Positions 1 through 40,645 of a stretch of 40,645 bases of DNA are shown here, piece after piece. A program made the position numbers and the translations under genes. Within the stretch, counting starts at the first letter, position 1; each line of letters begins with the position of its first letter. Source of the DNA: a virus; the IMG/VR virus record IMGVR_UViG_3300028840_000558. The stretch is one strand, 5' to 3'. The notes beneath the pieces were generated by a model. That model was not told where the DNA came from. It ran no database searches and was given only the letters and a program-made list of their open reading frames with translations.

Positions 1-255
1 CCGCAGGTCGGCATACCGCAGGTCGGCACCCTGCAGGTTGGCACTCCGCAGGTCGGCATACCGCAGGTTGGCATACCGCAGGTCGGCATACCGCAGGTCG
101 GCATACCGCAGGTCGGCACCCTGCAGGTTGGCACTCCGCAGGTCGGCATCCCGCAGGTCGGCATACCGCAGGTCGGCATACCGCAGGTCGGCACCCTGCA
201 GGTTGGCACTCCGCAGGTCGGCACCCTGCAGGTTGGCATACCGCAGGTCGGCACC
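1..255. repeat. 17 tandem 15-bp units (ccgcaggtcggcata and variants), the coding repeats of pentapeptide protein B
   Basis: Counted by hand. The period is exactly 15 nt (5 codons), and units differ at only 1-4 positions. Confidence 0.95.
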
Positions 256-606
256 GCAACACCAGCCCAGCCGGATAATGCGCCAGAACACACGTTTACT
301 AACACGTTTCAAGCGGAGTTCCCTCACCCCTACTTTCTCCTTGCTTTCACCAATGATGCCTCGATACTCACAAAACCACGGCCACCAACCGACAGGTGCG
401 TATCGCGCGGATAGTTTCTTCATGACGTGCCACCTGCCCGCTCCACAATCCTTACCATCTGGTTCAGCAGGTTCGGGATGTGTGAGCCACGGACCCCACT
501 TCTCGTCAGGTCTTGGCAGGGGATCTATGGTTTCAACCCCTTCGTATTCCGTCGCCCCGTACTGGTTCAAGAACTTCCAGCCGCGACCATCTATTTTTTC
601 GGTCAT
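1..606 (-). CDS. Pentapeptide-repeat protein B: N-terminal domain plus repeats. The 3' end runs off the left edge and continues at 40358..40645 if the contig is circular.
   Basis: ATG at 606..604 follows an AAGGAGACACA RBS and overlaps the upstream stop (ATGA). Hand translation gives [22 protein letters not shown]...RLGWCCG, then [15 protein letters not shown] pentads down to position 1. It is absent from the ORF track because there is no stop inside the window. Confidence 0.8.
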
Positions 607-1217
607 TGTGTCTCCTTATCTTCTGGCATCCTCGTGTATTCGTTTGTGATAATGCCGCGCAGGTCAGCACCCTCCAGGTCGGCATACCGCAGGTCGGCAT
701 CCCGCAGGTCGGCATACCGCAGGTCAGCACCCTCCAGGTTGGCATCCCGCAGGTTGGCATTCCGCAGGTCTGCATACCGCAGGTTGGCATCCCGCAGGTT
801 GGCACCCCGCAGGTTGGCACCCCGCAGGTCGGCATTCCACAGGACGGCATTCCATAGGTTGGAACCCTTACACCAACCCAACCGGATTACACGCCAAAAC
901 ACACGCTTTGGTACAAGGCGCAACCGCAATTCACGGACCCCAACCTTTTTATCGCTCTCGCCAAAGATGCCTCGATATTCGACGAACCACGGCCACCAAC
1001 CAATGGGCGCGTATTGTGCTGACAGTTTCTTCATCACATGCCAGCGACCAGAACCGCAATCCTTACCATCTGGTTCAGCAGGTTCGGGATGTGTGAGCCA
1101 CGGACCCCACTTCTCGTCAGGTCTTGGCAGGGGATATATGGTTTCAACCCCTTCGTATTCCGTCGCCCCGTACTGGTTCAAGAACTTCCAGCCGCGACCG
1201 TCTATTTTTTCGGTCAT
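603..1217 (-). CDS. Pentapeptide-repeat protein A (204 aa), a paralog of protein B
   Basis: The ORF track shows ...[61 protein letters not shown]. It shares the N-domain of gene B (about 160 nt nearly identical at 447..606 vs 1058..1217). GAGGAGAC RBS. Confidence 0.85.
655..860. repeat. About 13 tandem 15-bp units encoding the pentapeptide repeats of protein A
   Basis: Same ccgcaggt(c/t)ggcaNN unit as at 1..255, but more diverged. Confidence 0.9.
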
Positions 1218-3454: not shown

Positions 3455-3491
3455 TAGTAAAATGGAAAGACCGCGCACGTTGTACGCGGTC
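3455..3491 (-). terminator. Rho-independent terminator ending the structural operon
   Basis: Minus-strand RNA GACCGCG-UACAACGUG-CGCGGUC followed by UUUCCAUUUUACUAU, about 55 nt after the fibre-gene stop. Confidence 0.7.
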
Positions 3492-3545
3492 GTTACCTGC
3501 CCGCACTGCGGGGGATTGGTGGAGTTCGGCTTGAGGGGTGGGTGA

Positions 3546-4935: not shown

Positions 4936-6435
4936 TCACCATCCTAAAATCGTGTTGGTCTCGAAGGTTGCCGGGAATATCCAGTATCCCAATACGTCCT
5001 CTGGGTCGGGCTCTAACCTCCAAGTCGTCCTGCAACCGCGGGTCGCCTGCCAGTCATGCTCGATGTAGGTGATGTAGTAATCCCCGTCAATCCCCAGTTT
5101 ATCAATATCCAGCACGACGCCATCGAATAAATCATATGCAAACTGGTAGGTAGGTCTCTCCTCGAAGCGTATCCAGGGTACTTTGCGGGGATCTGCGTAC
5201 AAATATATTGCAAATCCCGCGTGGTCTGCCGCTTCTTGTGATTCCTGGGTCCAAATCTCATTTACCGTCATGTCGCGCCTACCATAATCGTTGATGCTGA
5301 CGGTATCTGATTCGATAGCAAACGTCTTGCTCTCGTCCTGGTACAATTCCCCGCGCAGTTTCATCAAGGTCAGGTAAACGCCTCCCGCATCGTTGTTCGT
5401 GATTTCCAATTTCGCCTCGGTTGCATAATCAGTCATTGAGATGCTAATTTGCGCGGTCTTATCCGCGCCGCCGCCTCCTTCCTCCGTATTGGCGGTATAG
5501 TCCGTGGTAGCTACAGGCGTGGTCACGCTCTTAGCGGGAGCCCATTCGCCCTCGTCCTGGTACTCAGCCCAAATGGTCAAAGTACCACTTGCGCCGATAT
5601 ATGGGATGTCTGATAGTCTCCAAATCTCTATTGATCCCGACTCGCGCCTCGGGTGAGCTCCAATCCTGATGCGATTCTTTATCTCCTCCCATGGCTGCTG
5701 CAGCTCCATGTCCTTTAATAATTCAGACTGCGTGATCGTGACTTTTGGATCTAATCCATAAATGCGCGCCTCATAACTAAATGTGCCATCTGTCGCTACA
5801 AATGCGTTGCCCGCCCAAGTGTTCTCCAGTTCGTTGATCGCCTCCAGCACGGTCTTCTTCGGGTCTGACCACCAGTAGGGCATCGTGTCGCCGTTATTTT
5901 CAATCCCCGTACCACCCAATTCGCTGTTGGTCTCAAAAATCATCGGGAATATCCAGCCCGAAGTATCAGCGAAAGGCCAACCTGCAGCGACCGTTAAGTC
6001 GTTGATCGCCTCATTGACTAGGTAATCGGTCTGCACATCCCCGTGTTCGCAGTTCTGCTCCTGTAACCAGTCCAGCCCGTCAGAGCATACGATTTGCGCC
6101 TCCGATCTCCCCTGGAAGCCCCGTTGTGGTCGTACATCACGGATAAACCCGGTGAATAGGTTGTAAGTCAATGTGCCATCAGTTGCTTTTATCCGCACAA
6201 CGCGGTTTGGTAGTATGTACCCGTAAAGTTCCCCAGAGGTGTTGAACGGGTCATAGCGACCATCGTAATTATCCAGGGTGAGGTACGCCATCCCAGGGTT
6301 CACATGGGCGTAACCGTCCTTTTCCACAGTCCTGCGCTTGCCACGCTGGATGTTGAACCGGATCACCCGCCCGCCCTCATCGGTGAATGTCCCGTTATCG
6401 TCCCAGTCGATGTAAATGTAATATTGGGTCGCCAT
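4936..6435 (-). CDS. Minor tail / tail-tip (distal tail-like) protein, 499 aa
   Basis: Called on position, directly downstream of the tape measure. I did not recognise a specific motif. Confidence 0.5.
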   Translation of the reverse strand: MATQYYIYIDWDDNGTFTDEGGRVIRFNIQRGKRRTVEKDGYAHVNPGMAYLTLDNYDGRYDPFNTSGELYGYILPNRVVRIKATDGTLTYNLFTGFIRDVRPQRGFQGRSEAQIVCSDGLDWLQEQNCEHGDVQTDYLVNEAINDLTVAAGWPFADTSGWIFPMIFETNSELGGTGIENNGDTMPYWWSDPKKTVLEAINELENTWAGNAFVATDGTFSYEARIYGLDPKVTITQSELLKDMELQQPWEEIKNRIRIGAHPRRESGSIEIWRLSDIPYIGASGTLTIWAEYQDEGEWAPAKSVTTPVATTDYTANTEEGGGGADKTAQISISMTDYATEAKLEITNNDAGGVYLTLMKLRGELYQDESKTFAIESDTVSINDYGRRDMTVNEIWTQESQEAADHAGFAIYLYADPRKVPWIRFEERPTYQFAYDLFDGVVLDIDKLGIDGDYYITYIEHDWQATRGCRTTWRLEPDPEDVLGYWIFPATFETNTILGW

Positions 6436-6436
6436 G

Positions 6437-7936
6437 TTACCTTCTTAAGGCATCATTTATTATCGGTACTAACTGTCGTTCAACTTCATATTGGTCTACA
6501 AACGATACAGCCGGGGAATACGTTAAATTAACCGTTGTCTGTCCTGGCTTAATGCGTGAATGACCAGGAACCCAGGTATTCATATTGGACGAGGTTGTAG
6601 GGTTTTCTCCGCCTCCCCCTAAATTTGGTAGGGTAATGTTGAATGCACCTAATACCGCGTTGATTGCTGTTTGACCCATTTTAAACCAGAGCATTGCCCA
6701 CCAGCGACCTACCGATAATACGCCATTACCAATCGCTGTTAGAATGTCTCTTCCGACCTGCCCCCAATCAACACTTCGTATGTACTCCAGCGTATCTTCT
6801 ATACGCTTCTCCATTACCCCTTTTATCGTATCCCAGATGCTTTTCCATAATTCCTGTAGAGTGTCTCCAAATTTCTCCCAGTCGCCCTCAAATGCCGCGC
6901 TGAATAACTCGAATGTAAGTTGCAATCCCTCCCAGACGCCCTCTACGAAAGTTTTGATACCCATAAAATCACTTTCCCAGGCAGAGCGCAAACCAGCAAT
7001 CCCAGCTTTCATCGCCTCAATTTTTGGAGACAACCATTCCCAGAACTCGCGCAAGGCTGGTAATAATTCCTCCTTCACCCAGCGGTAGGCATCCTTTAGC
7101 CAGGGGATTAATTCCTCTCTCAACCATCTGGCAACGTCCCTGATCCACTGTTGGAACTCCTCAGATGATACAAACTCGGTGATTTCATCTGCAAGATCCT
7201 GTATCAATGGTAGAAACGCCCCTCCGATTTCTTTAGCAGCAGTATCTTTCAGGTTGACCAGTGTTACGCTCAGTTGTTTGAATGGGTCGCTCATCTCGGG
7301 CAGGTTTTCGGTATTGATAGCAAGCTGTTGCATCACGGCATCAAATATCGCCATTTGCTGCTCGCTCTTTGTCAATTCCTTTGCGGTCTTTCCGACCGAT
7401 TCTGCATAGGCCTCCGTTGCGGCAGTCAAATCAACCTGTACCCCCAGGTTGTCCAAAATCATCGGGCTTACACGCCCAACGCCGCGCACAAGACTATCCA
7501 TCAGGAATCCCATGTCCTCGCCGGTCGCTGCGCTAACGCGGCTGAGATAATTCATGGCATTTGGTAATTCATTGGCAAAATCATCACTCACCAGACTGGC
7601 TGCCATGTTGTAGGATTTCATCAGGTCGGTATTGCGAATCAAGCCCCCTGACTGCCTTCTAAAGGCATCCATTAATTCATCGGCAGATTTTCCAGAACTC
7701 TCAGCAATCCCCTCGAATGCTTCCTCAATAGGACCGAGTTGGGCGGCATCTTTCGCCAAAACACCCAGACCAACCGCTAAACCACCAACCGCAGCTGTGG
7801 TCGCTCCAATTCCAGCTACGACTGCAGTACCAGCAAGTTTGCCCAGTTTGCCCAATGATCCAGATAAGCCGCCAATTATACCTTTTGTTTGATCTTTGGC
7901 ACTTATAATGATTTGTAGTTCTTCTTTGGTCGCCAT
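6437..7936 (-). CDS. Tail tape measure protein (short, 499 aa)
   Basis: Gly/Ala-rich hydrophobic N-terminus, long helical W/E-rich repeats, and position after the G/GT chaperone pair. Confidence 0.75.
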   Translation of the reverse strand: MATKEELQIIISAKDQTKGIIGGLSGSLGKLGKLAGTAVVAGIGATTAAVGGLAVGLGVLAKDAAQLGPIEEAFEGIAESSGKSADELMDAFRRQSGGLIRNTDLMKSYNMAASLVSDDFANELPNAMNYLSRVSAATGEDMGFLMDSLVRGVGRVSPMILDNLGVQVDLTAATEAYAESVGKTAKELTKSEQQMAIFDAVMQQLAINTENLPEMSDPFKQLSVTLVNLKDTAAKEIGGAFLPLIQDLADEITEFVSSEEFQQWIRDVARWLREELIPWLKDAYRWVKEELLPALREFWEWLSPKIEAMKAGIAGLRSAWESDFMGIKTFVEGVWEGLQLTFELFSAAFEGDWEKFGDTLQELWKSIWDTIKGVMEKRIEDTLEYIRSVDWGQVGRDILTAIGNGVLSVGRWWAMLWFKMGQTAINAVLGAFNITLPNLGGGGENPTTSSNMNTWVPGHSRIKPGQTTVNLTYSPAVSFVDQYEVERQLVPIINDALRR

Positions 7937-10368: not shown

Positions 10369-11485
10369 TCTTTACCATCTCCAATGCTTTCTGCCCTCCC
10401 GCGGCTCTCACCGCATTGTCCAGTTCCCTGGTCAGTTTCAAATTCTCCTCGAAGATCCCTAGTGCAAATCCCTTAGCGTATCCGGCGTTGATGTGCTGTC
10501 TTGTGAAGCTGTCTAGTTGCAGTCGCGCGGTTGGGCTCTTGCCGTGTTCATACGCCTCAATCGTGTAATCCAACCTGCCTGCGGTGCGGTGGATCATCTG
10601 GTGATACCTCTCGGCATCCTGCCGCGCCTGGCCTGCTGCTGCTTCATACTCGTTGCGATCTAAAATCGCCGTTCCCCCGTTCTGCAGCATCTCGGCAACT
10701 TTACTGGCGTACTTCTCTATTTCGTGCAAATGACCTTCCAGTTTACCCAAGGCGCCGCTGGCATTGATCAGTTCGCTTATCCTCTGCGATAAGTTCCCGT
10801 TGTTAAATGCCCTGGATAACGCCGCCTCTTTGCGGTCGTAGTCCTCCTTTGCCTCAGCGACCAATTCTCTCAGTTCCTCGGCGCGCTGGTCAAATCCTTC
10901 GGTTGTCCGCATGATGTCGCCTTCATAACCATAAACCGGCTGGTTGAAAAGCGAATTGCCGCCGTAGTAATCCACCAGGATACTCTTACCCAGCGCAATC
11001 CCGGTGTAGAAAGCGATGCAATCGCGCTGCCTTATATACTCGGTATCGGTCGCATTCTCCACACCATAAACGCAGATTTTGTTAGGTCTCTTGGTGATCG
11101 CCAATGCCAGGGCGTATGCGATCGACGAGGTGAAGAATTTAAGCTCCTTCAACTCAACTCCCTGCCTGAACCCGCTCAAGAGTGAATAGCATACTTCTTT
11201 CAGCGGGTATTTGCGGGAATTGGGCACCAGCGGATCAACCTCCAGCATATAAATCACTAGGTCGCCATGGTTCTGCTGCAGCCAGCGCCAATGATCTTTA
11301 TCGGCGCGGTTGTGAGAACTGCGGTAGACCTCCGGCGGGTGCATTTGGAACAATACCCGCGCGTTCCCCTTTGTCCATGGCGAGGTGTAGGTCTCGTTGA
11401 ATATCCAGAGTTCAGCCTCTGGATTGTCAAACGGCGCCATTTCCCTAGTCGCTGGATGCGTCCCCACAATGTGTATCTCGCTCAT
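10358..11485 (-). CDS. Rossmann-like N-domain plus coiled-coil protein, paralog 2 (possible sugar-transferase-like)
   Basis: IHIVGTHP...ELWIFNE...FFTSSIAYALALAI...ICVYGVE...EY. It is a paralog of the upstream gene and is ATGA-coupled to it. Confidence 0.4.
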   Translation of the reverse strand: MSEIHIVGTHPATREMAPFDNPEAELWIFNETYTSPWTKGNARVLFQMHPPEVYRSSHNRADKDHWRWLQQNHGDLVIYMLEVDPLVPNSRKYPLKEVCYSLLSGFRQGVELKELKFFTSSIAYALALAITKRPNKICVYGVENATDTEYIRQRDCIAFYTGIALGKSILVDYYGGNSLFNQPVYGYEGDIMRTTEGFDQRAEELRELVAEAKEDYDRKEAALSRAFNNGNLSQRISELINASGALGKLEGHLHEIEKYASKVAEMLQNGGTAILDRNEYEAAAGQARQDAERYHQMIHRTAGRLDYTIEAYEHGKSPTARLQLDSFTRQHINAGYAKGFALGIFEENLKLTRELDNAVRAAGGQKALEMVKNGR

Positions 11486-12618
11486 TCGCCCATCACCATC
11501 TCTAACGCTTTCACTCCACCTGCGGAGCGTACCTGCTCATCGTATAGTTCCATCCAGCGGGTATTCTCCGTTCTCACCCCATTCGCTACACCAGCGGCGT
11601 AACAGGCATTTCCATGCTCTGCGATACGGTGCCCGATTTGCGCCCGCAATGCTGCCGCTCTAGCCGACTTATCCCCGCTCCACATATCGATAAACGGTTG
11701 CAGTTCTCCAGCGGTGCGGTACACCTCGTTGCGGTAGTCATTAGCGTCCTGGGCGGTAAGCGCCAGGGCACTCTCCCATTCTCCACGATCCAGAAAAGCG
11801 GTTCCCCACTTCTCCAGCATATCGCTGACGATGTTATGGAACCTTTCCGACACCTGTAAAGCGCCTTCCAGATTACCCCATTCCGTCATCGCTTGAGCCC
11901 ATTCGGTGATGCGCTCGGATAGTTTCTTGTTGTTCCAGGCACGCAACAGCGCGTCAGCCTTGCGCTCCACTTTCTCGCGCGCCTTGCGGATCTCCGTTTT
12001 CAACTCTCTGACACGCTCCTCGAAGGTTTCCAGTTTCTGTTCCAAGTTGCCCTCATAAGCGTACAGCGGGAAGCGGAAAATCCCGTCCCCGGAATAGAAG
12101 TTAACTTTTATCCCGCGCCCGATTGCAATGCCCGTCCAAAACGTCAGGTTGTCTCGCTGGTATTCCCACTCTGTGTCGCTTGACATTTCCACGCCGTACA
12201 CATTGATTTGGGAATACCCCTGATAAATTGCCAGGGCGATTGCATATACCGGAGTAGAGCGGAAGAACGGGCACTCCTCCAGGTCCACCCCTTGATGGAA
12301 GTTACCCAACAGTTCCAGACAAATCCCCTCCAGGGGATACCGCACCGAGTTTGGCACATCCGGGTCAACCTCCTGCATATAAATTTTCAAATCGCCGTGA
12401 TCCTGCTGTAACCATTCCCAATGGTGCGGGTCACAACGGTTGTGCGGCGATTGGTAAACTACCGGGATGTGAATCTGGAATACTGCATCCAAATCCCACT
12501 CCTTCGCCCATTGGTTAGCCGCCTCGTTCATCACCCATACATCCACATCGGGATCATGTGACGGTGCGAGGTGGCGCGTATCCGACTGGCTGCCTACGAT
12601 CGCTACGGTTTGGTTCAT
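11482..12618 (-). CDS. Rossmann-like N-domain plus coiled-coil protein, paralog 1
   Basis: VAIVGSQS...DVWVMNE...FFRSTPVYAIALAI...INVYGVE...EY. I chose the ATG at 12618, which forms an ATGA overlap with the upstream stop. Confidence 0.4.
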   Translation of the reverse strand: MNQTVAIVGSQSDTRHLAPSHDPDVDVWVMNEAANQWAKEWDLDAVFQIHIPVVYQSPHNRCDPHHWEWLQQDHGDLKIYMQEVDPDVPNSVRYPLEGICLELLGNFHQGVDLEECPFFRSTPVYAIALAIYQGYSQINVYGVEMSSDTEWEYQRDNLTFWTGIAIGRGIKVNFYSGDGIFRFPLYAYEGNLEQKLETFEERVRELKTEIRKAREKVERKADALLRAWNNKKLSERITEWAQAMTEWGNLEGALQVSERFHNIVSDMLEKWGTAFLDRGEWESALALTAQDANDYRNEVYRTAGELQPFIDMWSGDKSARAAALRAQIGHRIAEHGNACYAAGVANGVRTENTRWMELYDEQVRSAGGVKALEMVMGE

Positions 12619-13049: not shown

Positions 13050-13667
13050 CTACACCATACTGATTTTGAACGCGTCCAGCGTGCGCTTCGCGTCAGGATG
13101 CCAGCCTGGGACTACCGCGATCTGACCGACCTCGGTTGGACCAAGCACCCCCGTCGGGGAAGCGTTGTAGTCATGCAGGCATTGGAGCAAACACGCCTCC
13201 TTGATAGCATTCAGGGTGCTTGCTGGCGCGGTCGCTGCGTGGTAGTTGAAGCGCCCGACCACCTTGACCGCCTTGGCGCTCGTTGGGAAGCATAGAGATC
13301 CCAGTGGCAGCCGGTCGATCCTGAAATAGGGTAAACCCTCCGAGCTGGCGTTATAGGGGTAAGCCTCAAAGTGTGTGCCCTCTGTCCAGCTGGTCGAGTA
13401 TGTCCTATCCACCTCATCATCGGTCGCCACGCTGGTTATCGTGGTGATCGGGTCAATCCAGCAGTGTGATACATCCTGGGCGGTAAAGTAGCGCGTCTCA
13501 TCGCTGCCAGTGTTGTAAAAGCGCGTCCCGGTATACAGGTTAATTTCCCTGCTCACCTTGGCGATGATGCGCGCTAGTTCGGTGTCGTTTACATCATCGG
13601 GCACCTGGTCGCTAGGCCACAGTCTCGCCTTGAGTTCGTCCAGAGTGCAGTAGTCGCCAGTCGCCAT
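13050..13667 (-). CDS. Head-tail adaptor (gp6-like connector)
   Basis: The N-terminus YCTLDELKARLWPSDQVPDDVNDTELARIIAKVSREINLYTGTRF matches the gp6-like connector pattern. Confidence 0.65.
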   Translation of the reverse strand: MATGDYCTLDELKARLWPSDQVPDDVNDTELARIIAKVSREINLYTGTRFYNTGSDETRYFTAQDVSHCWIDPITTITSVATDDEVDRTYSTSWTEGTHFEAYPYNASSEGLPYFRIDRLPLGSLCFPTSAKAVKVVGRFNYHAATAPASTLNAIKEACLLQCLHDYNASPTGVLGPTEVGQIAVVPGWHPDAKRTLDAFKISMV

Positions 13668-13679
13668 GCGCTACCTCCG

Positions 13680-13943
13680 CTATTGGTTCAGAGTTGCAAG
13701 GTAAGTCAGAACCACCGTCCCCTCGGTCGATACGCCGTAAATGGCTTCATTAGGACCGACATACAGGTCGATTTTTCCACTGGCTGGCAAATAGTGCCCG
13801 GTCGTTGTCGACACCGTAGAATTGCCGATATAAACTACGCCCTGGCTTGATACCTGGATATGCACATACGCGCCATCCCTATCAGGCGGGAATATCAACG
13901 TTGGATTGGTGGTTACTGTTACCTTATTTGTGGAAAGTGTCAT
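13680..13943 (-). CDS. Hypothetical small beta-rich protein, 87 aa
   Basis: Start moved to the ATG at 13943, which has a GAGGAA RBS. Confidence 0.5.
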   Translation of the reverse strand: MTLSTNKVTVTTNPTLIFPPDRDGAYVHIQVSSQGVVYIGNSTVSTTTGHYLPASGKIDLYVGPNEAIYGVSTEGTVVLTYLATLNQ

Positions 13944-25827: not shown

Positions 25828-26073
25828 TCATTCTAACGCGTCGATTTCCGATACCTTCGCTGACCGTGCTGACTGCAATGCTACCAACTCGCCCTGGTAT
25901 CCCTGATGCGATACGTCGCGTTCCGATTCCTTCTTGCGGATCTCGCTTTCGATCTGCGCCAGTTCGGTCTCAAGAGCCGCGCGTTGCAAAAATACCTTAA
26001 ACTTCACCGCATCACCATCGAACGCCGATACAATCGCATCCACTACTGCGTTAATCTGTGCCTCTGTTGCCAT
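25828..26073 (-). CDS. Coiled-coil protein, 81 aa
   Basis: The ORF has a heptad-like pattern. Confidence 0.5.
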   Translation of the reverse strand: MATEAQINAVVDAIVSAFDGDAVKFKVFLQRAALETELAQIESEIRKKESERDVSHQGYQGELVALQSARSAKVSEIDALE

Positions 26074-36037: not shown

Positions 36038-37153
36038 TTATATACCGGCGGCATGTTCAATTATCCTCCTGCCAACCCACTCTGCGACCTGCGGCACTAC
36101 GGCGTTGCCTAGTCCTCTAAGTCGGTCCACCCGAGCGGGAACTTTTGTGGCTATACGAGGGATGCCATCTTCCCAACTGGATATTTCCCAATTCGTCTTC
36201 CCGTCGAATGCCAAAAATCGTGACACGGTTTGCATAGAGTTTGAATGTTCTCTGCTAAATTGTTCTGAATCCTCTGGTCTATATGATGAGCCTGCAAATC
36301 CAAGCATGAGCCGCACGCCTCGCATTTCGTCTTCAAGTGCTTCCGGGCACGCCACGAATATCCGTGCTTGGTCAATGTCTGGCGCGTGTTCGCACACGAA
36401 AGCGAACAAAACCTCCGCTGCTTGAAGGCGGTCAAGTCCTCCAGTCGCTTTCCGTATCGCTTCCGCACCATTTCCTCGCCACAACTCTCGCAATATTTTG
36501 GTTGCTCTTTTACTCTCTTCATAACTCATTCCTTTTCCGATATGTCGCTCCAACCATGAGGGAAACCCATCAGACCTTCTACCCACGCCGGGTTCAACTG
36601 ACCACCAACTTCGCTTGATAGAGGAGGCGAATGATTCCCGTGGTCTGTTCCTGTTCCGCTCCTGTAGTCTCGTTCTGTCGGTGTCGGCCACAATGAAGAT
36701 CCGTTCTCGTCTGTGCGGGGCATCGAAGGCGCAAGCTGGAATATTAAATGTCCAGCAGGTGTAGCCTTCACTTTCCAGGTCAGATAGCACCTGGTCGAGA
36801 TAGGTGGTGACGATTCCAGGAACGTTCTCGGCAAGGACGTATCGCGGTCTTGCCTCTCTAATAATCCGGATAAATTCTGGCCAGAGATTGCGGTCATCTG
36901 CTGCGCCTCGTCGCTTCCCGGCGACACTGTGAGGCTGGCAAGGGAATCCTCCAGCAATAAGATCAACTGGTTCGAGGTTCCGTTTTCCACACTTTCTGAC
37001 ATCTCTGTACCTCCTAACCTCCGTCCAATGCTTCTCCAATACTTTTGTGCAGTAGTTGTCAAGTTCGACCTGCCACAGGCACGTCATTCCAGCGCGCTCA
37101 AGCCCCAGGTCAATGCCTCCTATCCCCGCGAACAGCGAGCCGAAGGTCATCAT
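36038..37153 (-). CDS. DNA (cytosine-5) methyltransferase, with an uninterrupted 371-codon frame across a nested HNH gene
   Basis: Motif I FAGIGG, IV GGFPCQPHS, VI LAENVPG, VIII APHRRERIFIV, X GLGNAVVPQ. About 130 codons between motifs VIII and X have no recognisable motif. Confidence 0.7.
   Translation of the reverse strand: MMTFGSLFAGIGGIDLGLERAGMTCLWQVELDNYCTKVLEKHWTEVRRYRDVRKCGKRNLEPVDLIAGGFPCQPHSVAGKRRGAADDRNLWPEFIRIIREARPRYVLAENVPGIVTTYLDQVLSDLESEGYTCWTFNIPACAFDAPHRRERIFIVADTDRTRLQERNRNRPRESFASSIKRSWWSVEPGVGRRSDGFPSWLERHIGKGMSYEESKRATKILRELWRGNGAEAIRKATGGLDRLQAAEVLFAFVCEHAPDIDQARIFVACPEALEDEMRGVRLMLGFAGSSYRPEDSEQFSREHSNSMQTVSRFLAFDGKTNWEISSWEDGIPRIATKVPARVDRLRGLGNAVVPQVAEWVGRRIIEHAAGI
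36151..36522 (-). CDS. HNH endonuclease (homing-type), nested out of frame inside the methyltransferase ORF
   Basis: CESCG...CEACGSCLDLQAHHIDQRIQNNLAENIQTLCKPCHDFWH. AAGGAA RBS 6 nt upstream of the ATG. Confidence 0.8.
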   Translation of the reverse strand: MKRVKEQPKYCESCGEEMVRKRYGKRLEDLTAFKQRRFCSLSCANTRQTLTKHGYSWRARKHLKTKCEACGSCLDLQAHHIDQRIQNNLAENIQTLCKPCHDFWHSTGRRIGKYPVGKMASLV

Positions 37154-38154: not shown

Positions 38155-38328
38155 GTCATAATAATTCCGGGCATGGGTGCCGCCGTTCCCATGCAATGAA
38201 GGACACTTGTTCTGGTATCAAAGATTGAAGTAGGATCTCTCCTTTAGTTCTCCACCGCAGGGTTAGGCGGCATCGTACTGCGGATCGTTGCGGGGTGGGA
38301 GCATACGCTTCTACCACGTACCGCTTAG

Positions 38329-38414
38329 TGGGGCGGGCAGGATTCGAACCTGCGGAAACCACGGTGGTATGATCAAAACTCCGCGCATTTCGTGCTCCAT
38401 AACGCCGCCGCCCC
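38329..38414 (-). ncRNA. tRNA-like element E1 (86 nt) without a canonical anticodon arm
   Basis: 7-bp acceptor GGGGCGG/CCGCCCC plus discriminator A. Canonical T arm GCAGG-UUCGAAU-CCUGC. D hairpin CGU-UAUGGAGC-ACG. I could not fold a 5-bp/7-nt anticodon arm. Confidence 0.5.
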
Positions 38415-38427
38415 ATGTCTGTATTGT

Positions 38428-38622
38428 TTATGAGATTTGTTGCTCATAACGCCCAAGCGCATCCATGGCTGTTAGCTCTGGAATTATCGTGTTGCTATAT
38501 TCCCCTTGTGTAGCGAAGGCGATCAACCGGATTGCGCAGAAATAAACAAGTCTCTTTGGCATCTTCCATGCCAGTTTCATCCAGAATTTTGCTATTAATC
38601 TTTGTATTACGCCATTTATCAT
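38428..38622 (-). CDS. Hypothetical protein, 64 aa
   Basis: AAAGGAGAA RBS. AT-rich. Confidence 0.5.
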   Translation of the reverse strand: MINGVIQRLIAKFWMKLAWKMPKRLVYFCAIRLIAFATQGEYSNTIIPELTAMDALGRYEQQIS

Positions 38623-38658
38623 TGCTATTCTCCTTTCAAATCCATCTTATCCTTCTAG

Positions 38659-38825
38659 TGGGGCGGGCAGGTAACGCTCCTGCCACCGTTTCCGCACCAC
38701 GAAGGGCTGAGTGATAACAAGGTATTTTTGCACTTATTCAACGGATCGCCTGCGGCTTACGTTCCGCGGGTTACACACATCAGATACGCTTCTGTGTGAA
38801 CGTGTCACTTCCACGCCGCCGCCCC
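38659..38825 (-). ncRNA. tRNA-like element E2 (167 nt), with the same termini as E1 and an expanded core
   Basis: 5' GGGGCGGCGGCG and 3' CCUGCCCGCCCCA are identical to E1. D-like hairpin CGUG-GAAGUGA-CACG and T-like hairpin GGCAGG-AGCGUUA-CCUGCC. Confidence 0.4.
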
Positions 38826-38829
38826 AAGT

Positions 38830-39087
38830 TCATTCGTTATCTTCTGGTAAACAGGATCTCTCAATAGGAATATTAATCACCGGATATACAGTACAAATTA
38901 TTCGAGCTTCACCTGACAATTCAATGACTTCACCAGATTTTGCCGGAATCACATCGTAGGTAATATATGTAACTCCATAAGGAATTTCAATAACACAAAA
39001 TGGCTGACCTTGATTGTCAGCAAGAGTTCGAGCCCGATTTATCGTATTATTTCTTAAACTCTCAACCGATTGTGTATATGCGCTCAT
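38830..39087 (-). CDS. Hypothetical protein, 85 aa
   Basis: TAGGAGA RBS. AT-rich. Confidence 0.5.
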   Translation of the reverse strand: MSAYTQSVESLRNNTINRARTLADNQGQPFCVIEIPYGVTYITYDVIPAKSGEVIELSGEARIICTVYPVINIPIERSCLPEDNE

Positions 39088-39335
39088 TGCAATCTCCTAT
39101 TATTTGTCTCTCCCTACCAGATCGGGAGAGACTCTCCTCTTTTCGCCCCGAAGGGCGGAGCCACTTTCTCGCCCCCATTTTGTCAGGACTAGGACAATCA
39201 CCTGACTGTAGCACCACCTCCGTTGCCTTTGGGTACTGTTAGCGTCGTTACCACACGTCCGAGGCCTGTCGTTTCATTCAATACGTGGCACGTTATCTCG
39301 GCCTTTTGTGGCTTGCCATTCCACCATAGGCTCTG
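39088..39335 (-). ncRNA. ORF-free, hairpin-dense 248-nt segment (structured leader or ncRNA)
   Basis: No ORF longer than 17 codons on the minus strand. Hairpins GCCC-UUCG-GGGC, GUCUCUCCC-N9-GGGAGAGAC and GUCAGG-N13-CCUGAC. Confidence 0.3.
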
Positions 39336-39452
39336 TGGGGCGGGCAGGATTCGATCCATATCATTGCTCCCGGTCTGGTCGGTGTCCAGGTCGGCGTGGC
39401 ACGCTTACGGGCGATCAACCCCAGCCAGACGCGTTACCCACGCCGCCGCCCC
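39336..39452 (-). ncRNA. tRNA-like element E3 (117 nt), with the same termini as E1 and an expanded core
   Basis: 5' GGGGCGGCGGCG, D-like hairpin GCG-UGGGUAA-CGC, long helix GUCUGG...CCAGAC, and a degenerate T region GGAUCGAAUCCUGCCCGCCCCA. Confidence 0.4.
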
Positions 39453-39456
39453 ATGA

Positions 39457-39627
39457 TTAAACATCGTTCATTTGAACGTGGATAAGTAACTCTCCCTCAA
39501 TGATTAATTCACACCCACAGTGGGGGCAATTTTCAATTTGCTTGTCCTCGAGATAATCCTCAATGTCTTTCGCAAGTTGAAAATCTCCAGCGCATTTAGG
39601 ACAAAACGTATATTCCCAGGTGTTCAT
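39457..39627 (-). CDS. Small zinc-ribbon protein, 56 aa
   Basis: Hand translation MNTWEYTFCPKCAGDFQLAKDIEDYLEDKQIENCPHCGCELIIEGELLIHVQMNDV. The GGAG RBS lies inside a fourth copy of the GGGGCGGCGG motif. Confidence 0.5.
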   Translation of the reverse strand: MNTWEYTFCPKCAGDFQLAKDIEDYLEDKQIENCPHCGCELIIEGELLIHVQMNDV

Positions 39628-39650
39628 CTATCCGCTCCGCCGCCCCATAA

Positions 39651-40361
39651 TTACTTTACCCACTTAGCATATACCTTGCCGCGGTAGCGCATTGCGGCGT
39701 ATTGGCAGTAGCCCAACACCATCCAGAGATCGTTGCCATCGGGGAATGAACTGCCTCGTACAAGACATATAACCTCGACCAATTCGCCTTTATTTAGGTG
39801 ATATGTAACAGGGTTAGCAGTTCCTGGTCCAGTACGTATATTCAGGAACGGGTCAGCGGTGATTTCCGCAACGGGCAACTCTGGAAACTGCGGTATTTCA
39901 ATCTCAACTGGTTCCGGTTCCTCGTCAATGCACTTGACCAGGTATGGAGCCGGGTCGATTGGCACTCCATCTTTACGAAGTTCAAAGTGCAGGTGTGGTC
40001 CGGTGCTATTGCCCGTGTTGCCCAAATAACCAACAAAATCTCCGGCTCTGACATCCTGACCTTCGTCAACGACAATATCTCTTAGATGGGCATAAATAGT
40101 CATAAAGTGAATGTTGTGAGCGATACGTACATGATAACCATAGCCAGTTTTAGCCCATCGCCTATCAGATACAACCCCATCAGCCGAGGCAAGTACGGTT
40201 GTTCCCATAGGAGCGCCAAAGTCAACCCCCCCATAGTAATAAACGCCACTCGGACATGGACCAGGCTTATGGCACCACCCATTCACCTTTGCCCACTTCA
40301 CATGCTCCGCAAACGTCTGTGTTATTGGAGCATTTGACGGGACTGGATATAAAAGTTTCAT
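39651..40361 (-). CDS. M23 peptidase with a C-terminal SH3-like domain (endolysin candidate)
   Basis: GGVDFGAP...GYHVRIAH...GNTGNSTGPHLHFELR. The C-terminus is LNIRTGPGTANPV...GELVEV. Confidence 0.8.
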   Translation of the reverse strand: MKLLYPVPSNAPITQTFAEHVKWAKVNGWCHKPGPCPSGVYYYGGVDFGAPMGTTVLASADGVVSDRRWAKTGYGYHVRIAHNIHFMTIYAHLRDIVVDEGQDVRAGDFVGYLGNTGNSTGPHLHFELRKDGVPIDPAPYLVKCIDEEPEPVEIEIPQFPELPVAEITADPFLNIRTGPGTANPVTYHLNKGELVEVICLVRGSSFPDGNDLWMVLGYCQYAAMRYRGKVYAKWVK

Positions 40362-40645
40362 TGTGTCTCCTTATCTTCTGGCATCCTCGTGTATTTATTT
40401 GTGATAATGCTCCGCAGGTTGGCATCCCGCAGGTCGGCATCCCGCAGGTCGGCACTCCGCAGGTCGGCATCCCGCAGGTCGGCATCCCGCAGGTCGGCAT
40501 CCCGCAGGTCGGCATACCGCAGGTCGGCACCCTGCAGGTTGGCACTCCGCAGGTCGGCATACCGCAGGTTGGCATACCGCAGGTCGGCATACCGCAGGTC
40601 GGCATACCGCAGGTCGGCACCCTGCAGGTTGGCACTCCGCAGGTC
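40358..40645 (-). CDS. C-terminal end of a pentapeptide-repeat protein (5' part off the right edge; probably the same gene as 1..606)
   Basis: Hand translation ...[26 protein letters not shown], with a TGA overlapping the lysin ATG (ATGA). The tail is nearly identical to that of protein A (607..655 vs 40362..40410). Confidence 0.8.
   Translation of the reverse strand, partial: DLRSANLQGADLRYADLRYADLRYANLRYADLRSANLQGADLRYADLRDADLRDADLRDADLRSADLRDADLRDANLRSIITNKYTRMPEDKETQ
40412..40645. repeat. 15.6 tandem 15-bp units, continuous with the array at 1..255
   Basis: Units were hand-aligned. The last 144 nt are identical to 1..144. Confidence 0.95.

Follow-up and report, generated by a model that had tools for sequence, protein, structure and literature searches.

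Three minus-strand elements (E1, E2 and E3), lying between positions 38329 and 39452 of the viral record IMGVR_UViG_3300028840_000558, combine the acceptor end of a transfer RNA (tRNA) with unlike cores that have no usable anticodon arm, and belong to a family of such elements found in other phages. The whole stretch of 40,645 nucleotides (nt) was analysed and is called the window below. The reading we favour, to which we give a probability of roughly 45%, is that E1, E2 and E3 are tRNA-derived, non-decoding elements that would be excised from an early operon transcript as processing signals or stable RNAs.

Each of the three elements starts with GGGGCGGCGGCGU and ends with CCUGCCCGCCCCA, followed by C. 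An identical 13-nt 5' end and an identical 13-nt 3' end, 26 end positions that are the same in all three copies, thus enclose cores that cannot be aligned, and the shared ends pair as a single G-C-rich acceptor helix of 7 base pairs (bp) with discriminator A. The exact 10-mer GGGGCGGCGG from the 5' end occurs four times in the 40.6-kb window, always on the minus strand and within 1.3 kb; tolerating one mismatch raises the count to 11, where 3.3 would be expected, and none of 100 shuffles reached 11. The 13-mer 3' motif has exactly three copies, each paired in order downstream of a 5' motif, and the clustering of the shared-end motifs is far beyond chance. The elements and their parts are the following.

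38329..38414, minus strand: E1, 86 nt.
38408-38414, minus strand: 5' strand of the E1 acceptor, followed by C8 and G9, with a D-like hairpin at about 38390-38405.
38337-38353, minus strand: T arm of E1, GCAGG-UUCGAAU-CCUGC, with the acceptor 3' strand at 38330-38336 and the discriminator A at 38329.
Core of E1: a weak 'anticodon-like' stem of A-U and G-U pairs, and a hairpin resembling a variable arm (ACCAC-C-GUGGU region).
38659..38825, minus strand: E2, 167 nt, with a long irregular arm of about 85 nt.
38800-38816, minus strand: D-like hairpin of E2, GCGUG-GAAGUGA-CACGU.
38774-38798, minus strand: hairpin of E2 with AGAAGCGUAU in its loop (38784-38793).
38667-38683, minus strand: T stem of E2, GCAGG/CCUGC, closing the non-canonical loop AGCGUUA.
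39336..39452, minus strand: E3, 117 nt.
39431-39443, minus strand: D stem of E3, GCGU/ACGC.
39419-39430, minus strand: 5' strand of a tRNA-Pro(GGG)-type anticodon stem in E3, with the start of its loop.
About 39380-39418, minus strand: 39-nt insert of E3.
39373-39378, minus strand: 3' strand of the E3 anticodon stem, CCAGAC.

A reading of the DNA that preceded this analysis and used its letters alone (the sequence-only reading) had proposed three such elements with common ends, a 7-bp acceptor-like helix and discriminator A, and both their coordinates and their sequences were confirmed, as was the D-like hairpin it placed after each 5' end, a short hairpin that begins at position 10 in all three and in E1 carries GG in its loop. 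When folds were constrained to the acceptor helix, each element formed a multi-branch, cloverleaf-like junction, and all share U at position -1, the pair G1:C72, and A73-C74. The T arm of E1, rightly described earlier as a textbook one, resembles those of annotated phage tRNAs: the 3' part of E1 matches them, and a search of phage records with E1 alone gave matches confined to the T arms of assorted tRNAs. The T regions of the other two are altered, as had been claimed. E2 keeps the stem under its unusual loop and shares with E1 a 12-bp acceptor/T stack, while the last 19 nt of E3 equal those of E1 but the 5' strand of its T stem has been lost, leaving 2 bp of that stem and, as an alternative T arm, a shifted 5-bp stem around an 18-nt loop.

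Standard annotation tools did not recognise these structures. ARAGORN with default settings reported neither a tRNA nor a transfer-messenger RNA (tmRNA) in the whole window, and no Rfam family reached its gathering score there. The best permissive Rfam match, tRNA-Sec on E1 (20 bits, with the threshold at 47), retains the acceptor, T arm and variable arm and deletes the anticodon arm; E2 and E3 matched no family of the Rfam tRNA clan (CL00001) at E up to 10. An anticodon arm at the standard position (5-bp stem, 7-nt loop, U33, purine 37) is found in none of the three, the corresponding region containing only an A-U/G-U stem and C33 in E1 and a 6-7-bp stem with an 8-13-nt loop in E2. Canonical parts amount to the acceptor and A73 in all three elements and a full T arm in E1 only, and U8 is replaced by C8 throughout. 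Thus E1, E2 and E3 are not ordinary decoding tRNAs, as the sequence-only reading had maintained, and the check it had proposed with ARAGORN and Infernal/Rfam folded no element as one. Several other classes were considered and rejected. A tmRNA was called only as spurious permuted ARAGORN hits at 70% thresholds, with none in the default run or in Rfam; a Y RNA (YrlA) gave no Rfam match, the element ends form an acceptor helix, and no rsr gene was seen among the open reading frames (ORFs) scanned; a miniature inverted-repeat transposable element does not fit copies that are alike at their ends only and lack target-site duplications; and replication iterons do not fit spacings of 194-627 bp.

By sequence, the elements derive from tRNAs, as indicated by the Rfam tRNA score of one outside family member (L121), by an anticodon arm concealed in E3, and by the presence of the same acceptor and T stem in real tRNAs. 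L121 scores 37 bits on the Rfam tRNA model, above the threshold of 29, despite a broken anticodon stem. The real tRNAs with this acceptor and T stem are tRNA-Met/Ile(CAU) and tRNA-Lys(UUU), mostly from Actinomycetota, and a viral tRNA-Ile(UAU); they have U8-A9 and canonical arms. As for E3, a scan of single deletions showed that removal of 39 nt (about 39380-39418) yields a molecule that ARAGORN accepts as tRNA-Pro(GGG): its D stem has 4 Watson-Crick pairs, and its anticodon stem, GUCUGG/CCAGAC, has 6 bp and closes the loop CUGGGGA (CU-GGG-GA). Any such match arose in 6 of 150 shuffles of the E3 core. The earlier statement that no anticodon arm could be folded therefore stands for E1 and E2 at the standard position and fails for E3, in which a perfect arm appears once 39 nt are skipped. 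In the same scan, tRNA calls for E1 were no commoner than in shuffles (16 of 150 reaching the observed count) and E2 was never called a tRNA; 'tRNA-Leu' calls in another member, L134, had mismatched stems and were discarded.

The concealed arm of E3 invites the view that these are real tRNA genes with unconventional short introns, E3 being a tRNA-Pro(GGG) whose 39-nt intron can be placed at the canonical 37/38 position, or that the gene is split, with its 5' half in E3 and its 3' half in E1. The well-formed 6-bp stem and CU-GGG-GA loop, rare in shuffles, speak for an intron, and ARAGORN with introns allowed does join the two halves as a tRNA-Pro(GGG). This call, however, spans a 1033-nt 'intron' holding two genes and E2; in the resulting chimera the anticodon stem is mismatched and the variable region leaves 26 nt unpaired, and we take it for an artefact that the shared acceptor ends produce. 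Nor was a group I intron (Intron_gpI) or other ribozyme matched between 38000 and 39900 at E up to 10, the 39-nt insert being too short for a group I intron in any case; no splicing enzymes were found in the window, the host looks bacterial, E3 has no T arm and has C8, and no single deletion turns E1 or E2 into a significant tRNA. A parallel for inserts of this size exists in the viral contig L274, where a tRNA array (69-169, 288-399 and 487-582 on the plus strand, and about 622-708) includes three tRNAs with anticodon-loop inserts of 23-37 nt, which score 44-45 bits on the Rfam tRNA model, above its threshold, and are seen by ARAGORN only when introns are allowed. Such short inserts are unusual in a phage-like contig. 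Taken together, an intron-containing or split tRNA gene is the least probable of the explanations weighed here, with very little chance of being correct.

More importantly, the architecture is not confined to this phage. A search over IMG/VR keyed on the 3' end ATCCTGCCCGCCCCAC returned 26 loci, about 11 of which have a matching GGGGCGG 5' strand 64-151 nt upstream. Members include elements of 73 nt (L121), 72 nt (L137), 103 nt (L134) and 151 nt (L139), and a 64-nt element common to four related contigs (L127, L131, L145 and L146; GGGACGG in L145); further scans added a 78-nt element from a metagenome (L272), L276/L280 and L285. Altogether the members occupy about ten unrelated uncultured-phage contigs of 44-62% G+C. 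The members have in common their acceptor, their T stem and a D-like hairpin, with cores that differ and no anticodon arm that could be used; in several of them a CCA is genomically encoded past the discriminator. ARAGORN called none of the elements on the outside contigs, although genuine tRNA genes lie near some of them, a tRNA-Tyr or tRNA-Asp at about 130 nt and a tRNA-Met at about 380 nt. Absence of the shared ends from other phages, which had been named beforehand as speaking against the elements, was not seen, and the suggestion of a new noncoding RNA family is borne out to the extent that the family is absent from Rfam and present in unrelated phage contigs.

Three similarities among these members had not been selected by the searches. 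First, C8 is present in eight of the nine members compared (L134 has U8). Second, a hairpin of at least 4 bp begins at position 10 or 11 in seven of the nine, against 1.7 expected, and none of 2000 core shuffles reached seven; these stems differ in sequence (GCUC/GAGC, GUCGG/CCGAC, GCGUG/CACGU and others). Third, the matching 5' strand of the T stem is present and in register. Within the 64-nt group, GG:UU changes to GG:CC in the single hairpin of the element. A covariance model (R1, from alignment A1) built from seven outside members only was then run on the whole window with filters off. Its three best hits were, in this order, E1 (49.7 bits, E=1.2e-7), E3 (23.8 bits, E=0.012) and E2 (19.6 bits, E=0.07), the score being significant for E1 and borderline for E3 and E2; at E up to 0.1 nothing matched in 946 kb of viral DNA from elsewhere.

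Other searches were less productive. The 5' motif alone gave too noisy a scan of viral contigs, a single metagenome scan yielded one locus, and a genome scan recovered mainly real tRNA-Met/Lys of Actinomycetota together with chance or REP-like (repetitive extragenic palindromic) matches and no cellular copy of the element. The most variable part of the family is the T loop, which measures 15 nt in L276/L280, 18 nt in E3 with its shifted stem and 5 nt in L285, and consists of non-canonical 7-mers in other members, the T stem being kept. Besides the array of L274, tRNA-like elements with other acceptor sequences also exist on two member contigs. In L272 a second element (about 1060-1140, minus strand; acceptor GGGCUCG/CGAGCCC, canonical T arm GUGGU-UUCGAAU-GCCAC) lies 7 nt past the stop of an ORF; the GGGGCGG-type element is about 100 nt further downstream, and an ERF-like recombinase gene follows both. 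L139 carries, on the strand opposite to its GGGGCGG-type element, a 164-nt tRNA-like element (6406..6569, minus strand) whose acceptor is GGGUGGU/ACCGCCC and whose T arm is ACAGG-UUCGAAC-CCUGU; it has an encoded CCA and, close to its 5' end, three repeats of UGACCCCG. A further observation concerns L275 (about 13600-13900 on the minus strand, and 10424-12144), a 129-kb phage contig from JGI sample 3300017963, which also holds a near-identical copy of the region studied here. L275 encodes a tmRNA and tRNAs, and near a GGGGCGGCGG motif it has a piece resembling a T arm and 3' half, after which come two pieces resembling tRNA 5' halves.

The existence of a family also bears on whether E1, E2 and E3 could be decaying pseudogenes left by a former phage tRNA cluster and devoid of present function. 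Their clear tRNA ancestry and the degenerate T arms of E2 and E3 would fit such decay, as would L133, a relic consisting of a T arm and 3' acceptor strand without the 5' strand inside an array of 28 tRNAs. Neutral decay, on the other hand, would not hold 26 identical end positions in three copies with unalignable cores, and the same architecture recurs in about ten unrelated phages. No single-nucleotide polymorphism (SNP) among the assemblies falls in the elements, a weak point given that only four SNPs are known in the region. Pseudogenes are consequently a poor explanation, one we hold to be quite improbable.

The placement of the elements among genes is equally regular. They lie in the early recombination/replication part of the phage genome, where the minus-strand order is an M23 peptidase gene, a zinc-ribbon ORF of 56 amino acids (aa), E3, a spacer, an 85-aa ORFan, E2, a 64-aa ORFan, E1, a glycosyl-hydrolase-like gene and a methyltransferase gene. 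The features between and beside the elements are as follows.

39637..39646, minus strand: solitary fourth copy of the 5' motif GGGGCGGCGG, 4 nt past the M23 peptidase stop, with no 3' partner.
39457..39627, minus strand: zinc-ribbon ORF, 56 aa, a called gene with a weak Zn_Ribbon_YjdM match; its stop lies 4 nt ahead of E3.
39088..39335, minus strand: non-coding spacer of 248 nt from E3 to the 85-aa ORF, with GC-rich hairpins such as CGCCC-UUCG-GGGCG and no recognised RNA family.
38830..39087, minus strand: 85-aa ORFan, a called gene with an AGGAG ribosome-binding site; its stop lies 4 nt ahead of E2.
38428..38622, minus strand: 64-aa ORFan, a called gene with an AAAGGAG ribosome-binding site; it starts 36 nt past E2 and its stop lies 13 nt ahead of E1.
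38295..38317, minus strand: hairpin GUGG-loop-CCAC, 12 nt downstream of E1, with a second AGAAGCGUAU in its loop (38303-38312).

All four 5' motifs have U at position -1, and all begin 4-13 nt past a stop codon, which agrees with the earlier description of elements set between small genes; outside members start 7-23 nt past ORFs on the same strand. The ORFs downstream of the elements have their own Shine-Dalgarno sequences. That the fourth 5' motif forms the ribosome-binding region of the zinc-ribbon ORF also proved correct: it runs into, and supplies, a GGAG Shine-Dalgarno sequence 7 nt ahead of the ATG. This solitary motif and E3 share a 17-nt context that includes the stop codon, UAAUYAUGGGGCGGCGG.

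Such regularity may alternatively reflect events at the DNA level, the identical ends being short homology boxes for the exchange or duplication of ORFan cassettes and the tRNA-like shape ancestral baggage. Promoter-stem-loop cassettes of T4-type phages offer an analogue, and integron attC sites resemble such linkers in layout only. The sharp boundaries between identical ends of 13-19 nt and unrelated cores are what would be expected of linkers, each element follows an ORFan, the solitary motif with its 17-nt context looks like a recombination scar, and phages that differ widely in G+C content carry these same ends. For homologous recombination, however, 13-nt boxes are short; no attC core sites (RYYYAAC / GTTRRRY) lie at the element ends, a scan of the ORFs, though not of every small one, revealed neither an integrase nor a recombinase, and the contigs listed as having the same ORFs (5 and 3 places in two look-ups) show no presence/absence polymorphism of cassettes. 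Linkers would also leave the D-like hairpins, the T-loop motif and the encoded CCA of other members unexplained. On this balance, recombination linkers appear improbable.

In the favoured reading, the elements, situated on the coding strand within small early genes, would probably be transcribed as part of that operon RNA. RNase P would cut at G+1, 4-13 nt past the stop codon of the upstream ORF, and a 3' tRNA-processing nuclease (RNase Z or an equivalent) after A73 or C74. These cuts would divide the polycistronic RNA into individual mRNAs and set free three structured RNAs of tRNA-like form (86, 167 and 117 nt), probably CCA-tailed. An acceptor/T stack, G1:C72, A73-C74, U at -1 and an elbow-forming D hairpin are what RNase P, RNase Z and the CCA-adding enzyme read. 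It is precisely the acceptor helix on a T stem, G1:C72, the discriminator A, U(-1) and the D-like hairpin that are kept in the elements, while the anticodon domain has been replaced, interrupted or expanded. The identity of the 26 end positions around unalignable cores argues for selection on the ends. What the sequence shows is the anatomy, the lack of a usable anticodon arm, the place of the elements in a wider phage family and their position relative to the ORFs; transcription, cleavage, CCA addition and any benefit to the phage are what we infer. The sequence-only reading had offered tRNA-like punctuation, decoy tRNAs or a new noncoding RNA in place of decoding tRNAs: its non-decoding part is upheld, its suggestion of a new family fits the absence of these RNAs from Rfam, and its punctuation part is consistent with the placement after stop codons, U(-1) and the 12-bp stack.

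Several observations weigh against excision as a processing signal. The family members were retrieved with the 3' sequence of E1 itself, so that the conservation of the acceptor and of the 3' strand of the T stem is partly a matter of ascertainment. Folding energies of the elements are no better than those of shuffles (z = -0.6 to -1.4). Recognition of the elbow by RNase P may be weak in E3, with no proper T arm, and in E2, with no T-loop motif. The searched collections contain no syntenic relatives, and hence allow no covariation test for E2 and E3. Finally, cores of 60-140 nt in a compact genome are needless for a pure processing signal, which hints at a further role.

Such a role is the substance of the explanation ranked second, according to which the elements are trans-acting stable RNAs whose acceptor/T minihelix is a scaffold for processing, CCA addition and stability, and whose variable cores are a payload, either protein sponges, antisense RNAs, or decoys for enzymes or toxins acting on tRNA acceptor ends. 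Long cores that differ between copies and are nevertheless retained in a compact genome would be understandable in these terms, and some outside members with encoded CCA sit in tRNA clusters as stable-RNA genes do. Small repeats within the cores point the same way. The repeat of AGAAGCGUAU at 38784..38793 and 38303..38312, noted from the sequence alone, is real, both copies being displayed in hairpin loops, and the motif is found a third time within coding sequence (6801..6810). Similarly real is the reported near-complementarity of E1 and E2, in which CCACCGUGGUUUCCGCA of E1 (38352..38368) can pair with UGCGGAAACGGUGG of E2 (38688..38701) through 8 + 6 bp with a 3-nt bulge, both segments occupying the same position, immediately 5' of the T stem. 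A core motif, AUACCACCG(U)GGUU, links E1 to L121 of an unrelated phage, and its complement stands in E2 at the same position. This complementary box may be either an inverted duplication or a trans-pairing box, and the duplex energy of the whole E1 and E2 cores is not significant relative to shuffles. Further difficulties for a trans-acting role are that the cores are not conserved across the family, that no partner protein is common to the family loci, whose gene content in common with the window consists of generic enzymes only, and that antisense pairing with phage transcripts is limited to two weak matches (14 nt, E ~0.02, inside coding sequence). These matches are perfect, joining E2 nt 94-107 and 150-163 to minus-strand transcripts at 25985..25998 (inside an 81-aa ORF) and 3491..3504, and at E ~0.02 each they are probably due to chance. 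Trans-acting RNAs are thus possible, though doubtful. A broader version would make the elements natural 'tRNA scaffolds', in which the acceptor/T minihelix (C8, A73, optional CCA) secures processing and stability, the hypervariable core is functional, by sponging host enzymes or defence toxins that act on acceptor ends or by pairing of the E1/E2 box, and the ends double as junctions for shuffling ORFan cassettes between phages; this combination we regard as unlikely.

The window represents an uncultured tailed phage of about 40.6 kb, apparently a circularly permuted genome assembly, with nearly all genes on the minus strand, among them those for a portal, a major head protein, a large terminase, a DnaB-type helicase, RecT, a C5 DNA methyltransferase and an M23/SH3 peptidase. 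Its gene content (M23/SH3 peptidase, DnaB, RecT) is what makes the host look bacterial. Contigs 99.8-100% identical over the compared region occur in ENA, JGI (sample 3300017963) and Logan assemblies; the four SNPs among the near-identical contigs listed are all outside E1, E2 and E3, so that no covariation can be read from them. More distant relatives are scarce: the nearest cultured phages have portal identities below 30%, a blastn search with the region found nothing among 50,697 phage records, and searches of IMG/VR anchored on the 85-aa ORF, glycosyl hydrolase and DnaB proteins produced no useful syntenic relatives, homologues of the glycosyl hydrolase being few. Among 5.8 billion proteins the homologues of the 85-aa ORF are limited to its own 99%-identical cluster, and neither it nor the 64-aa ORF has a match in Pfam or PHROG scans. 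A scan for promoters and terminators found no promoter specific to the elements and no terminator at them.

Two other features of the genome were noted in passing. An HNH endonuclease ORF of 123 aa (36151..36522, minus strand; phrog_1271, E=2e-9) lies wholly inside the 371-aa C5 DNA methyltransferase ORF (36038..37153, minus strand), on the same strand and in another frame, and it is exactly there that the methyltransferase, compared with its profiles, carries about 100 inserted aa, possibly an overprinted or nested homing-endonuclease insertion. In addition, pentapeptide-repeat genes made of 15-nt tandem repeats (40267..40635 and 38..1217, minus strand) span the window ends, and their repeat number varies between assemblies (214 vs 249 aa).

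The usual explanations for phage tRNA genes are codon usage and the evasion of defences that cleave tRNAs; a family that keeps the acceptor/T half without decoding fits neither. Full-text searches of the literature returned no report of such phage elements, and they are absent from the standard libraries. Missed by ARAGORN and Rfam annotation, they are probably under-counted in viral metagenomes. Known systems nevertheless provide partial likenesses. Phage tRNA genes themselves share with the elements the acceptor stem, T arm (E1), D-like arm and coding-strand site between ORFs, as well as the acceptor and T stem of real tRNA-Met/Ile, Lys and Ile(UAU), and some members lie near tRNA clusters; they differ in that the elements have no usable anticodon arm, carry C8 for U8 and remain below the ARAGORN and Rfam thresholds. 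The tRNA-like domain of tmRNA likewise joins an acceptor to a T arm with no anticodon arm, and starts with GGGG. Unlike tmRNA, the elements have G3:C70 in place of the alanine identity pair G3:U70 and contain neither a tag reading frame nor pseudoknots, and no SmpB is present. Species 1 and 2 RNAs of phage T4 (rnaC/rnaD), small stable RNAs of its tRNA cluster that are co-transcribed and processed with tRNAs, are comparable by description, and are not known either to have one acceptor sequence in common or to alternate with ORFs. Mimicry of tRNA by a non-decoding RNA is also seen in the bacterial Y RNA YrlA and in mascRNA, the latter being released by RNase P and RNase Z, whereas YrlA has its tRNA-like module in an internal position and requires Ro/Rsr.

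The closest documented parallel, by analogy, is that of the plant mitochondrial t-elements, non-canonical tRNA-like folds with a GGTTCRANYCC motif that set mRNA 5' and 3' ends via RNase Z and RNase P and accumulate as small stable RNAs with added C or CCA (Forner et al. 2007, PMC1920247). Like them, the phage elements adjoin coding regions, 4-13 nt past stops, and pair an acceptor stem with such a T arm, which in E1 reads GGTTCGAATCC, E2 and E3 keeping the acceptor and the whole or part of the T stem. Unlike them, the phage elements combine large, variable cores with ends that are identical throughout a single genome; t-elements are organellar, show no sequence relationship to them, and undergo known RNase cuts where those of the phage are predicted. 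If E1, E2 and E3 follow the same logic and are indeed processing signals, they would bring to a bacteriophage operon the tRNA punctuation of mRNAs, a mechanism known from organelles; if the released RNAs act in trans, they would be phage small RNAs of a new type and a natural counterpart to the engineered tRNA scaffold.

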